Assembly (NCBI RefSeq): GCF_026626745.1
Contig: NZ_JAPNJW010000002.1
Location: 1,382,151-1,446,150, forward strand
Source: Nannocystis sp. RBIL2
Lineage (GTDB): Bacteria > Myxococcota_A > Polyangia > Nannocystales > Nannocystaceae
DNA length: 64,000 nucleotides
Direction of reading: 5' to 3'
Below the pieces are notes generated by a model, which was not told where the DNA came from, ran no database searches, and saw only the letters and a program-made list of their open reading frames with translations. Below, in pieces: positions 20,277-62,322 of the stretch (the first letter of the stretch is position 1; each line of letters begins with the position of its first letter). The position numbers and the translations under genes were made by a program.

Positions 20277-21326
20277 TTAGTTCGTAAACGTACGTTTAGA
20301 CCGCATCTGGACCACGTTGCCAAGCTTTGCCTGACCTTTGCCAAGTCGAGAGGACCGGGCCTCCAGCGCGGCGATGGCTTGCTTGGCAAGCGCGAGCTTG
20401 TTCACATGGACATAATACAGCAGGGTCGTCTGAAGATCCGAGTGACGGGCAAGAGCCTGAAGCGCGTACGGGCTCTCGCCGGCCTCGGCCAGGTGGGTGA
20501 GCACGGAGTGACGGATCCGGTGCGGCCCGCGGACCTCCACACCGGCCCGGACCTGGATCTTGTTCACGATCCACGCCAGCGCTTGATCCGTGGTGTGAGC
20601 GCGCCGTCCCCTCTTGGGCAGGAAGACGAACTTCACGTCGGGCCGCGTCGCCAGAAGCTCCCGGAGAGCTTCCTTCAGACGGGACGTCAGCGGGATCGTC
20701 CCGACCTCGCCCTTAGGGCTGTCCTGGAAGACACAATGGGAGACGTTCCGCTGGATCGTCATGCCCACGTCCCAGTTGATGTCCGACCACTGGAGGCCGG
20801 CGCATTCACCAATGCGCATGGCGCCGTCCACCAGCAGCAACATCAGGACTCGCTCTTCCAGGTCCTCGGCCGCATCGATCTGCTGCTCAAGCTCCGCCTC
20901 GGTGTAAACGTCCACCTTCTTTTTCTCGGCCTTGGGCCACTTGAGCGACGGAATCGCATGCATGGCTGGGAGCTTCCCCCGCTCCTTCGCCCAGTTAAGG
21001 CAAGCGGTAAGTTTCTGCTCCGCCAGCTCGATTGAACTTCGGACGCATCCACGCTCCATCATCCGCGAGCGAAGGTTCGCAAGATGCTCTTTCGCGATTT
21101 GGTCCGCACGGACCTTGCCCAGCAACGGGCCGAGGTCTTTGCGGTAAATGCTACGGTATCCGGATTGAGTGGAAGCTTTCTGATGGCGAATGTGCTCGTT
21201 GTCGAAGTCGATCCACAATTCGGCCAGCTTGGGGACTCTTTTCTCAGGTTCTTTCTTGTCCTCCTTCTTCTTCTCCGTCGCGTCTGCCTTGGGCGCGCCT
21301 TTGCACGCTTCCAAGAACATCTCCAT
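20277..21326 (-). CDS. Tyrosine recombinase / phage-type integrase
   Basis: 349 aa; the C-terminus GPHRIRHSVLTHLAEAG...LARHSDLQTTLLYYVH carries HxxR and the catalytic Tyr context. It has more A/T-ending codons than the flanks. The stop codon (20277-20279) sits exactly at the junction with the TetR remnant. Confidence 0.9.
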   Translation of the reverse strand: MEMFLEACKGAPKADATEKKKEDKKEPEKRVPKLAELWIDFDNEHIRHQKASTQSGYRSIYRKDLGPLLGKVRADQIAKEHLANLRSRMMERGCVRSSIELAEQKLTACLNWAKERGKLPAMHAIPSLKWPKAEKKKVDVYTEAELEQQIDAAEDLEERVLMLLLVDGAMRIGECAGLQWSDINWDVGMTIQRNVSHCVFQDSPKGEVGTIPLTSRLKEALRELLATRPDVKFVFLPKRGRRAHTTDQALAWIVNKIQVRAGVEVRGPHRIRHSVLTHLAEAGESPYALQALARHSDLQTTLLYYVHVNKLALAKQAIAALEARSSRLGKGQAKLGNVVQMRSKRTFTN

Positions 21327-56879: not shown

Positions 56880-58118
56880 ATGACGACGAGCCCCAAGATG
56901 AACGTTCTGCTGGTCGCGCCTATCCTCGGTGGCGGGGTGGAAGCGGCGCTGGAAGTCCTGATCCGAGGCCTCGAGTCACGGGGGATCCAGTGCGGCGTCC
57001 ATGCCACGAGCGGAGCCAGTGAGCGACTGGAGAAGCACTGCTCGCTGGGAGTACACCTTGGAGCATCGCGGCCTGTCGTGGTGGATCTGCTGCGAGGTCG
57101 CTACGACCTCGTCCACGCCACTTCCCTGTGCGTTCAATCCCCGACCATGGCGCGCCTGCTCCGCTGGGCGCACGCGCTGGTGCCCACGGTCTGCACAAGT
57201 CACGGGAGCGTGGAGATCGACGTCTCGTCCGTCCCTTTCGACGCCTTCACGGGGGTCTCGTCCAGCGCGGCAGCGGCTCTGCTTCTCCCGCCTGGAGAGA
57301 CCGTGCACGTGGTGCTGAGCGGCCCGGACACGGAGCACTGCCAGCCCGGCCCGGCTAGCCCCTCGGCCCGGCCGAGGTTGCTCTGGGTCGGGCGCACGCT
57401 GGACAGCGACTGGCAGTCGAAGGATGTCCATGGCCTGCTTTATCTGGTCGCCGAAGGAGGGTTGCGTGGATTCGACGTGATCCTGCTCGACGCCGAGGAC
57501 CGGAGAGAGGCCCTGGGTCTCTCGGACTGGCTGGCTGGTCGCGTCGACTACCGCGCCGGGCGGTACTCCAAGGCAGAGATGGCGGCGCTTTATCGTGAGA
57601 CCGCCGCATCCGGCGGCGCGCTGCTCTCCACCTCGCGCGACGAAGGTCTACCCATGGTAATGTTGGAAGCGTGGGCTTGCGGCTGTCCTGTCATCGTCCC
57701 GCGCCGGGCCGGGTTCGATCTGGTTCAGGACGGCGTGAACGGCCTCGTCTTCGAGCGCTCGGAGTCGTTCGCAGGTATTCGTCGTTGCCTCGACGCCCTG
57801 CGAGATCCGGAGATGCGCGCGCGTATCGTGGCCCAGGGCCTCGCAACCATCGCGGGGACGTGCAATCCAACTGCGATGGTCAGCGGATACGAGCAGGTGT
57901 ACCGGCGCCTCCTGGCGGAAGGCCGCCGCTCCCGGCTTCGCGCCGCCTGGCGCGACGTGCTGGCCCTCCCAGGCGAACTCCTTCGCGCCATCCCTCACGC
58001 GCGCTGGGCAGGGTGGGCCGTCAGCAAGCGCTGCAGCGCGATCCGCCCCTTCGCGCGGCCACGTGGGGCGGAACCGTCGCCGCGCCGCAGCGCGAGCGAG
58101 ATCAAGCCCGAGGGATGA
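56880..58118 (+). CDS. Family 4 (GT-B) glycosyltransferase
   Basis: Part of ORF 56757..58118 from ATG 56880. LSTSRDEGLPMVMLEAWACGCPVIVPRRAGFDLVQDGVNGLVFE (EX7E-type motif). Confidence 0.85.
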   Translation: MTTSPKMNVLLVAPILGGGVEAALEVLIRGLESRGIQCGVHATSGASERLEKHCSLGVHLGASRPVVVDLLRGRYDLVHATSLCVQSPTMARLLRWAHALVPTVCTSHGSVEIDVSSVPFDAFTGVSSSAAAALLLPPGETVHVVLSGPDTEHCQPGPASPSARPRLLWVGRTLDSDWQSKDVHGLLYLVAEGGLRGFDVILLDAEDRREALGLSDWLAGRVDYRAGRYSKAEMAALYRETAASGGALLSTSRDEGLPMVMLEAWACGCPVIVPRRAGFDLVQDGVNGLVFERSESFAGIRRCLDALRDPEMRARIVAQGLATIAGTCNPTAMVSGYEQVYRRLLAEGRRSRLRAAWRDVLALPGELLRAIPHARWAGWAVSKRCSAIRPFARPRGAEPSPRRSASEIKPEG

Positions 58119-58334: not shown

Positions 58335-58645
58335 AGCCTCGGCCTCCGCGCCGCCGCGGTCGCCTGCGAGAGGCCGATGTAATTCCGAATGAAGATGAAT
58401 CCGCCGCCGGCGGGAGTATCACCGTGCGCGGGACGACGGGTTGTCCCGCGCTCCCCCACACCGTGGCCAGCTCCAGCCAAAGAGCCCTTGCGCCCTCTGG
58501 CGCTCCGGCGGTACGGCGCCGCTTCTGCTACAGTCACTCCTGGGTCAAACGACCTCGGGGACCCACCACCACCATCACATCGCGCCGCGGTCACGCAACG
58601 TTCGAACCAGGCGGGCAACGCGCCTGCCAGCAAGGAAACAGACAC
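58335..58645 (+). promoter_or_regulatory. AT-rich box / 5' leader module, copy 2
   Basis: Box at 58372-58397, a 248-nt variable spacer, then AAGGAAACAGACAC before ATG 58646. Confidence 0.6.
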
Positions 58646-59029
58646 ATGACTGACGTTAACTCCAAGGGCCCGGCCCCAACTCAGGTCCCAGCGGACATGA
58701 CGGAGAAGCCCCCCGAGACGACGGCCGAAGTCCCAGAGCAGATCAAGCCCGACACCGTCGTTGCCGACGCCCGCGACAAGCTGCTGGCAGCCATCGGCGC
58801 CGAAGCCCAGCACCTCGCGGAGAAGTCCGCCGGCCAGGCATCCACCGCCCTGGCGGAGCTCGCACACGCCTTTGCCCTGGTGACCAGCCCCAACCCCGCA
58901 GCCGCCGGCTTCACCGCTGGTCGGCGATATGTGGAGGAGCTCGCCCCGCCTAACGGTTCTCCCATTGGCGATGACTACATCGTCATCGACGTGCCCAGGC
59001 CGGTCATCACCTACTATCCCCGTACCTGA
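58646..59029 (+). CDS. Leader-family protein (MTDVNSKGPAPTQVP...), helical ADARDKLLAAIGAEAQHLAEKSAGQASTALAELAHAF segment
   Basis: Part of ORF 58424..59029 from ATG 58646. Its first 15 codons and the helical segment are shared with the 59447 ORF. Confidence 0.55.
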   Translation: MTDVNSKGPAPTQVPADMTEKPPETTAEVPEQIKPDTVVADARDKLLAAIGAEAQHLAEKSAGQASTALAELAHAFALVTSPNPAAAGFTAGRRYVEELAPPNGSPIGDDYIVIDVPRPVITYYPRT

Positions 59030-59315: not shown

Positions 59316-59446
59316 GCCGATGTACTTCCGAATGAAGATGAATCCGGCGCCGGTGGGAGTATCAGTGCTCCGGCAAGGTCCCGTGAGCGGCTCGATTCCC
59401 CCCTGGCCTCACGCCTGTGTGAAACTCGACACAAGGAGACAGACAC
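59316..59446 (+). promoter_or_regulatory. AT-rich box / 5' leader module, copy 3
   Basis: Box GCCGATGTACTTCCGAATGAAGATGA at 59316-59341. CGACACAAGGAGACAGACAC lies before ATG 59447, alignable to copy 1 with indels. Confidence 0.6.
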
Positions 59447-60001
59447 ATGACTGACGTTAACTCCAAGGGCCCGGCCCCAATTCAGGTCCCGGTGGCCGAC
59501 AGCGCGATCCCGGAGGCCGAGGGCGGCCCTGCGGCACCCACCTCGAACGCCGTCGCCGACGCCCGCGACAAGCTTCTGGCAGCCATTGGCGCCGAAGCCC
59601 AGCTCGTTGCGGAGAAGTCCGCCGGGGATGCGTCCAAGCCGCTCGCGGAACTTGCCCGCGCCTTCAACAATGTGACCATCAAGAACATGATCACCGGTAC
59701 GTCGCAAGCGGACGTCGCCCTGCTCGTGGTGCCTGCAGACCGGGGAGGATTCGAGGGCGCCTTCGCGCGTGAAACCCAAGTGAGGCTGTTGACGGCCATC
59801 GGCGGCGAAGCCCAGCACCTCGCGGAGAAGTCCGCCGGCCAGGCATCCACCGCCCTGGCGGAGCTCGCACACGCCTTTACGCTAGTAACCAGCCCCAGCC
59901 CCGCAGCCGCACGGATCGCGCTCGCGCCCGCAAGCGGCCTCACATTGATGAACGAAGTGGCGATCGACGGGAGTGTGACGGTCACGGTTAGATATCTCTG
60001 A
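59447..60001 (+). CDS. Leader-family protein with duplicated helical segment interrupted by an eEF1A/EFL-like fragment
   Basis: [15 protein letters not shown]...ADARDKLLAAIGAEAQLVAEKSAGDASKPLAELARAFNN-VTIKNMITGTSQADVALLVVPADRGGFEGAF-ARETQVRLLTAIGGEAQHLAEKSAGQASTALAELAHAF. IKNMITGTSQAD is identical to eukaryotic EF-1alpha (bacterial EF-Tu has VKNMITGAAQMD). Confidence 0.55.
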   Translation: MTDVNSKGPAPIQVPVADSAIPEAEGGPAAPTSNAVADARDKLLAAIGAEAQLVAEKSAGDASKPLAELARAFNNVTIKNMITGTSQADVALLVVPADRGGFEGAFARETQVRLLTAIGGEAQHLAEKSAGQASTALAELAHAFTLVTSPSPAAARIALAPASGLTLMNEVAIDGSVTVTVRYL

Positions 60002-60688: not shown

Positions 60689-61014
60689 CGGGCAGGTCGA
60701 CTTGCGCAAGGGCTTCGAGGGCCTCAGCGCGCTCGTGCAGCAGGCGCTGGGCAAGGATCCGCTGTCGGGGGCGTTGTACCTGTTCACGATTCGGCGGCGG
60801 ACGACGGCGAAGGTGCTGCCCCGCCTGGCGATGAGCCGGCGAAGAAGAAGACGGGGCACGGATGTTCGCTACCACGGACAGGAACGTGAGACGCCCGGCG
60901 AAAGGGGAAAGGGGCGCTCCGGAAACCGCGGCCTCATGTCGAGCGAGGCGCATGGCGCGGACGAGAGCGAACCGCCAGCGGACGCTGACCACGACGTATT
61001 CGTGGCGGCCGACC
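60689..61014 (+). mobile_element. IS66-orf2(tnpB)-like fragment repeat, copy 2
   Basis: Same sequence as 44230-44616, minus the 63-bp insertion. Confidence 0.65.
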
Positions 61015-62322
61015 CTTCACCGTCGCTCTCACTCCCGCTGTCCGTGGCCGTCGTGGCTCGCCCGGCCTTACCTGATCGCCTACCTCGGTGACGAGGACCG
61101 AGCCGACCGCTACCTCGACCAAAAGCAGGCGCACTTCGCCTGCGTTGGCTATCCCCGCACACTCGAGGACCGGGCGCATGTTCTCTGCGACTCGGTCCTT
61201 CCGGTCGACGATACCTTCAGCAAACCCGGTATCCAGGGCAACCCTGCCGCAGCCAGGGAACACCATGCCGGCTGGAGCGCGGTGTTCGCCGGTGAACCTC
61301 CACCACCCGGGGCCGACCCGGCGTACTTCTTCGTGCACGAAGCCCTCGAGGCATGCCTGCCCCACGCATCCCCCGGCCTCGTCGAACGCCTCCGCAGTGG
61401 CTGGCAAGACGTCGCGGATGCCTTTCTTGACGAGGCCATCCACAAGACGAGCGAGGTCGGCGCTGTGCTCACCGGCGCAGGAGCGCCCGGCCGCCCCGCC
61501 TCGCCGAGCTGCTCGGCGCGCTCGCGCGGGTGATGGGCGACGGGGTGGTGCTGCGCGCGGTGACGACGCAGGGCACAGTCACCGCGAGCATGCCGCCGGC
61601 TGCGGTGGACAACCGGTTGCCACGCGCATCGCTGCCGCCGCTCGCGCGCCGCGAGGGGCGCGAGCTGTTCGACGTCCTGCGAGAGGCGTGGGCCCTCGCC
61701 ACGCGGGGTGCTCTCGCAGATGGACCGATCGAGTGCAGCGCGCTCGCGCGGGACACCGGCACGCTGGCCGCCGGGCCGCACGAGCCGCCGCCTGTCCCGT
61801 GCGAGCCCTTCGTGCTCCCGCCCGATCCGGCGCTGACTGACGCGCTCGCGGACATCGACACGAGCAACGAGGCCGGGCTCGCGGCGGTGCTCGTCCATCC
61901 CGACCCGCGGGCACGCGTCGCGCTGATCGACGACTGGGGCGACGTGCTCGGCCACGCGCCGACGTGGGCGCGGCTGCTGGCCGATCCGTCCCCCGCCGTG
62001 CGCGCTGCCGCCGTGCGCTGCAGCGACTGCCCGCTGCCGATGCCAGCGAGCGAGCGTCACCCCGGCGTCCGTGCGTCGTCAGAACAGGCGCACCCGTGGG
62101 AACTGGCGATGCTCGCGGACCCTTCCGGAGTCCGCCGTGCGCGCCGCGGTCGCGAGGAATCTCAAGGCTCCGTCCCGCGTGCTCTGCGAGCTCGCGCGAG
62201 ACCCGGTGGCCGAGGTCCGTCGCGCCGTGGCGTGGCCGCTCTGCCTGGCCGCGTTCTCGGGGTACCGCGGCGACGCGGCGGCCCGACGCGCCCTCGAGGC
62301 GCTGGCACGGGTGCGGCGGCCC
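61015..62322 (+). pseudogene. HEAT/LRV-repeat protein gene, disrupted (IS fragments at both ends, at least two frameshifts)
   Basis: Three frames must be joined: 60862..61533 (WLARPYLIAYLGDEDRADRYL...), 61530..62417 (LAELLGALARVMGDG... read through in the +2 frame; LVHPDPRARVALI, LLADPSPAVRAAAV) and 62071.. (SAVRAAVARNLKAPSRVLCELARDPVAEVRRAVA). Confidence 0.4.

Follow-up and report, generated by a model that had tools for sequence, protein, structure and literature searches.

The open reading frame at positions 59447–60001 (+) of the window, the 64,000-nucleotide stretch of the Nannocystis sp. RBIL2 genome analysed here, encodes a predicted protein of 184 residues that is represented among the exact sequence clusters in NCBI. 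It is built of a leader, a helical hairpin, a spacer derived from eukaryotic EF1A, a second hairpin and a tail. The N-terminal leader (59447–59557, +) is common to a neighbouring paralogue and to many leaders of the same protein family. Hairpin 1 (DARDKLLAAIGAEAQ...LAELARAF; residues 38–73, 59558–59665, +) is delimited by the family alignment and appears as helices in the AlphaFold2 model. It is followed by residues 74–115 (59666–59791, +), whose translation contains NNVTIKNMITGTSQADVALLVVPADRGGFEGAFARETQVR, and which correspond, according to their identity to EF1A and to the Pfam and NCBIfam models, to the switch II/β4 stretch lying just past the DAPGH motif of that factor. Hairpin 2 (residues 116–155, 59792–59911, +) and a C-terminal tail that is divergent in the family alignment (59912–60001, +) complete the protein.

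The paralogue (58646–59029, +), for which the database has an entry, P0262, with a start farther downstream, consists of the leader, one hairpin and a C-terminal domain, and is free of cargo. Comparison of the two genes bears out the preliminary description of this locus in that the helical segment occurs twice in the longer ORF and once in its neighbour. It had also been claimed that the second copy is identical in DNA to the paralogue from GGCGCCGAAGCCCAGCACCTC onward. This holds for a run of 73 nt, in which positions 59806–59878 of hairpin 2 match 58801–58873 exactly, but not for the rest, as the ORF carries the motif GGCGGC... and the two hairpin sequences differ at 9 positions out of 126 nt.

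A second cassette (54182–54445, +) joins the leader to an S1-domain fragment, which domain, protein and DNA matches assign to Pseudomonas rpsA. The S1 domain is 88–89% identical to RpsA of the Pseudomonas fluorescens group, and the cargo DNA is 84% identical to P. fluorescens rpsA over 198 nt, with a GC content of 53% against ~70% in the host, whose own rpsA is only 30% identical to it. The proposal that part of a non-myxobacterial translation gene lies behind the same leader in a neighbouring ORF therefore stands, and, judged by its matches and composition, the S1 cargo is clearly of foreign origin and has kept the base composition of its donor. A Shine-Dalgarno sequence and start (AAGGAGACAGACACATG; 59433–59449, +) are common to the three leader ORFs, the other two copies lying at 58632 and 54168. 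Every leader ORF is also preceded by a conserved 26-nt element, GCCGATGTA(A/C)TTCCGAATGAAGATGA, GCCGATGTAATTCCGAATGAAGATGA (59316–59341, +), located ~100–270 bp ahead of the leader ORFs, with further copies at 54083–54108 and 58373–58398 on the same strand and another at ~54708. This element is possibly a promoter or regulatory motif. It is found once elsewhere in the genome (C2:4439538, −), upstream of an unrelated ORF (MAWTWHKVTG...) that has its own Shine-Dalgarno sequence.

The cassette cluster is adjoined by an IS66-family transposase (52348–53790, −; Pfam DDE_Tnp_IS66, E=8e-15). The only tyrosine recombinase of the window lies ~34 kb from the cassettes, at ~20277–21326 (−), and was identified by a Phage_integrase match (E=1.8e-24) at C2:1402547–1403053 of the genome. 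The remaining neighbours, all on the forward strand, encode a Jacalin-lectin protein (48598–50151), a GSCFA protein (54746–55987), a WcbI polysaccharide enzyme (55984–56871), a group-1/GT4 glycosyltransferase (56757–58118) and a terpene synthase C-terminal domain (60862–61533); a family member with RRM cargo in another genome (L043) likewise adjoins terpene synthases. The window as a whole is rich in GC (~0.67–0.77). The local GC content between 52000 and 60000 is 0.66–0.69, against 0.70–0.77 in the rest of the window, and is consistent with a horizontally acquired island. The leader/helix family is present in the host genome at this locus only, and searches with the helix-family protein gave no match in 10 genomes of Nannocystis or in a further 25 from its taxonomic family. 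Leader-family ORFs with other inserts, for which a search of other myxobacterial genomes had been suggested, occur among the Streptomyces members; none is found in these 35 genomes. The confinement to one locus, the absence from 35 relatives, the IS66 element and the low GC content together are the grounds on which genome comparison identifies the locus as a strain-specific horizontal acquisition.

The origin of the segment between the two hairpins is indicated by protein comparison. When residues 70–118 are searched against 5.8 billion proteins, the top matches are all eukaryotic EF1A, with 83–86% identity over ~36 aa (73% of the query) and E ~3e-10. The Pfam model GTP_EFTU matches residues 78–106 with E=0.0089, a sub-threshold value of the kind that a fragment would give, and NCBIfam prefers EF-1_alpha (TIGR00483, E=3.2e-5) to EF-Tu (E=0.02). 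Both the protein search and NCBIfam thus place the segment nearer to eukaryotic EF1A than to EF-Tu or aEF1A. The best matches come from the apicomplexans Cardiosporidium, Eimeria, Cystoisospora, Toxoplasma, Plasmodium and Cryptosporidium, from the stramenopile Cafeteria and from metagenome proteins. The EF1A-type fragment reported in the preliminary description is therefore genuine and of eukaryotic type, but its supposed plant-type affinity is not supported, the closest matches being alveolate/SAR EF1A. With eEF1A the ORF has ~36 aa in common (NMITGTSQADVALLVVPAD.GGFEGAF), and these comparisons confirm, at the level of sequence, that the segment is a fragment of a eukaryotic EF1A with SAR/alveolate-type affinity. 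With EF-Tu, including that of the host, it has in common the KNMITG core found in switch II of translational GTPases. EF-Tu, however, has NMITGAAQMD..., the host EF-Tu reads VKNMITGASQMDAA at the corresponding stretch, and the closest EF-Tu-like proteins found by searching the host genome reach 58–63% identity over 24 aa. The host copies are therefore not the source of the segment, and derivation from host EF-Tu or from any other bacterial GTPase of the host, which had been named as a possible refutation of the eukaryotic origin, is rejected. The exact-sequence cluster of the host EF-Tu bears the name of Nannocystis EF-Tu, which confirms the host as a myxobacterium of this genus, and no SsgA was detected, as would suit a host outside Streptomyces.

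At the DNA level, a 90-nt comparison of the fragment gives 82% identity both to the Eimeria EF1A and to the Streptomyces copies described below, and 69% to the Cardiosporidium EF1A. The bacterial EF1A segments agree with eukaryotic EF1A at 25–27 of 30 residues and with one another at 24–26 of 30, and are thus about equally close to both, so that a single capture followed by spread is indistinguishable from repeated capture. As the fragment is short, it could be argued that an EF1A-like segment arose here by convergence, independently of any EF1A DNA. The extent of the residue agreement and the ~82% DNA identity to Eimeria EF1A reduce the probability of such an origin to next to nothing, and chance similarity is statistically refuted by an E value of ~3e-10 among 5.8 billion sequences. 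In the EF1A genes of Eimeria and Cardiosporidium an intron follows FSKEG, and the bacterial copies run on EF1A-like beyond this point (...FSRDGQTR... in Streptomyces). On condition that the EF1A donor had the FSKEG intron, this would suggest that a spliced RNA was captured.

Contamination is classically suspected where a bacterial gene contains eukaryotic sequence, and the fusion could be an artefact of a chimeric assembly or of contaminating eukaryotic DNA. This explanation is considered very remote, as independent soil metagenome contigs span 59551–59793 and 59662–59812 with 0 mismatches, reproducing both junctions exactly, an identical chimeric module is present in the assemblies of two separate Streptomyces species, and the S1 cassette is a fusion of a similar kind. 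Assembly chimerism and contamination are rejected on the evidence of the soil contigs and of the separate Streptomyces assemblies, and the junctions, for which long-read support had originally been called for, are supported by the former. A contig of the soil metagenome run X1 carries a eukaryotic EF1A gene (…IDAPGHRDF…) with ~85% DNA identity to the fragment over 41 nt; potential EF1A donors are, by this gene, present in soil.

Only a small part of the elongation factor is represented in the ORF. A complete eEF1A G domain, with its G1 (GxxxxGKS/T), G3 (DxxG/DAPGH) and G4 (NKxD) motifs, is absent, and the Pfam match is confined to positions 83–106. Neither DAPGH nor the P-loop was found in the ORF, which agrees with the earlier observation that DAPGH is missing ahead of the segment, and Pfam gives no match to GTP_EFTU_D2 or GTP_EFTU_D3 in these 184 residues, whereas full-length eEF1A has ~440 aa. 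In contrast to eEF1A, the ORF thus holds a mere fragment within a helical scaffold, without the G1, G3 and G4 motifs and without domains 2 and 3, and is not a GTPase; as far as its sequence can tell, the EF1A segment cannot have GTPase activity. The AlphaFold2 model, calculated from an 11-sequence alignment, is of low confidence (mean pLDDT 56), and in it both hairpins are helical and residues 76–99 of the EF1A stretch are disordered. The EF1A piece is most likely a passenger peptide in a linker that is predicted to be disordered, rather than a functional domain. As a short loop and strand out of its GTPase context, and with disorder predicted for the linker, it therefore most likely has no elongation-factor activity. 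The predicted protein may never be produced at all.

It could nevertheless be proposed that the EF1A peptide has been retained for binding partners of EF1A or targets in eukaryotic cells, for instance as a secreted or displayed mimic. The switch II/β4 sequence of EF1A is indeed preserved, and the segment has a high degree of conservation when set against the scaffold: between Nannocystis and Streptomyces the insert shows 71% amino acid identity and hairpin A 69–72%, so that the insert is about as conserved as the scaffold, a hint of constraint or of recent spread rather than of neutral decay. Such mimicry is regarded as quite improbable, however, as the G1, G3 and G4 motifs required for GTP binding are lacking, the segment is predicted to be disordered, and the protein has no signal peptide, its leader not being a Sec signal. 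The hairpins do not point to a type VII substrate of the WXG100 kind either, as their turn reads KSAGQAS or xPGQAS, without WXG.

The protein family to which the ORF belongs comprises 562 proteins detected by an HMM profile at a threshold of E≤1e-3. In the alignments, a conserved leader (consensus MTSN..xDEGIQQIPAxIxVxxPAA) is followed by one to six helix-turn-helix hairpins of ~40 aa each (consensus EARD.LL.AIG.EAQ.VA.K..GQAS..L.ELARAYALV), with variable spacers and tails, the latter often ending in HSISLVAHVPTNGFYVVPxDPDLVNKDQD. Profile and alignments place the ORF in this family by its leader and its ARD.LL.AIG.EAQ...GQAS..L.ELARAYALV hairpins. A pair of hairpins separated by a variable spacer is the standard layout of the family, and not, as had been thought, the result of an insertion between duplicated copies of a helix. 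Nor is the insertion unique to this gene, as the EF1A fragment occupies the spacer in at least five Streptomyces members. The members with the fragment between hairpins number at least six when the ORF of the window is included, the others being P0036, P0047, P0260, P0261 and P0335, and P0277 carries a degenerate copy. In the flagellin fusions P0036 of S. mauvecolor and P0047 of S. melanogenes, hairpin 1, the EF1A fragment and hairpin 2 are followed by a conserved C-terminal domain, and the genes adjoin IS4-family (DDE_Tnp_1) and IS21 transposases. Small members consisting only of hairpins are found on Streptomyces plasmids, beside Tn3 transposases, recombinases and integrases.

The family is found mostly in Streptomyces, and its matches in the searches of prokaryote genomes and plasmids are from Streptomyces only. 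The Atlas contains only 'hypothetical protein' clusters, from Actinomycetota. No relatives were detected among viral contigs, and there was no match in PHROGs or to the anti-phage defence models of PADLOC. Literature searches for EF1A transfer to bacteria and for flagellin-like repeat proteins of Streptomyces returned nothing. The variable slots of other members hold a range of further cargoes, including an RRM_1 domain in P0346 (E=1.3e-17), the EF-Tu G1 region in P0304, EF-G domain II and an S1-like segment in P0294, the C-terminal region of EF2/EF-G in P0351, a Gram-negative porin (Porin_4) in P0343, a VgrG/gp5 OB domain (Phage_base_V) in P0265, flagellin N- and C-terminal domains in six members, and an Hsp70 fragment. 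The cargoes recognised so far show an apparent leaning, on these matches, towards very highly expressed or abundant proteins, although this bias could equally be a product of the way in which they are detected.

These observations raise the question of whether a dedicated system captures short foreign pieces, from abundant transcripts or from genes, and places them in frame into leader and hairpin cassettes, thereby forming a peptide-display library. In one version of this explanation, the capture step would perhaps be the reverse transcription of abundant foreign transcripts, and the resulting proteins could help in competition or defence by serving as decoys or as sensors. The cargoes come mostly from highly expressed genes (EF-Tu/EF1A, EF-G/EF2, S1, Hsp70, RRM, porin and flagellin), as expected if the source were RNA, but the highest expression goes together with the strongest conservation, which makes such proteins the easiest to recognise in short fragments, so that a detection bias is possible. 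The continuation of the bacterial EF1A segments past the apicomplexan intron site after FSKEG fits a spliced RNA if the donor had the intron, a condition that makes the argument a weak one. The near-equal closeness of the bacterial copies to eukaryotic EF1A and to one another leaves room for repeated capture, but the sharing of one cargo across genera is explained more simply by inheritance. The cassettes of the window do have the leader, the Shine-Dalgarno sequence and the upstream element in common. Near the locus, however, a reverse transcriptase, an integrase and a CRISPR array are all absent: the reverse transcriptases of the genome are encoded only on contig C1, so that the adjacent reverse transcriptase gene of a retron, a DGR or an RT-Cas1 CRISPR system is missing, and repeat finding revealed no CRISPR array at the locus. 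No tRNA was found in the window. The literature searched describes no such system, and its existence is considered rather unlikely.

Several known systems resemble the locus in part. Integron cassettes likewise form arrays of expression units with common upstream and Shine-Dalgarno elements and with foreign coding DNA, but the locus has no IntI or attI adjacent to it, the recombinase being ~34 kb away and attC having been judged from repeat finding only, and its cargoes are only parts of genes, joined to a leader scaffold. A type III CRISPR system with RT-Cas1, which acquires sequences from RNA, would explain the bias towards fragments of abundant transcripts. In contrast to such a system, the locus lacks a reverse transcriptase, Cas genes and CRISPR repeats, and the cargo lies in protein-coding frames instead of spacer arrays. 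Polymorphic toxins and other proteins with variable C-terminal cassettes (Rhs/LXG-type) have a conserved N-terminal part and segments that are swapped by recombination, as in the hairpin family. The cargo of the hairpin family, however, consists of fragments of housekeeping proteins and not of toxin domains, and neither immunity genes nor delivery domains were identified.

The model that is considered probable proposes that foreign fragments have been fused by DNA-level recombination into a family borne by transposons and plasmids, and have no elongation-factor function there. According to this model, the family of small proteins, many of whose variable spacers and tails consist of in-frame pieces of foreign genes, would be carried by mobile DNA, mainly in Streptomyces, and the Nannocystis strain would have gained its copy horizontally. 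A piece of ~36 aa from the coding sequence of a eukaryotic EF1A of SAR/alveolate type would have been joined in frame into an ancestral member, between two of its hairpins, presumably when foreign DNA (or cDNA) underwent illegitimate recombination inside the mobile family. The EF1A piece and its scaffold would then have been carried together into several Streptomyces proteins and into Nannocystis. The Pseudomonas rpsA cassette would be the outcome of a like process that took place more recently, the composition of the donor having been retained. The family proteins are not expected to have any elongation-factor function. A search for capture machinery close to the locus found none, and the mechanism of the fusion is therefore a proposal.

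The transfer of pieces of eukaryotic genes to bacteria has rarely been documented, and the EF1A case is well supported. It concerns a eukaryotic EF1A segment that a mobile bacterial family carries in two phyla, in Actinomycetota as well as in Myxococcota. Captured fragments of this kind also call for caution in annotation, as they yield misleading matches to EF1A, S1 and RRM in bacterial genomes. If the bias towards highly expressed proteins is true, and not an effect of detection, capture from RNA would be indicated. For this poorly studied family, the finding means that its variable slots receive pieces of foreign genes in frame, from eukaryotes and bacteria alike.
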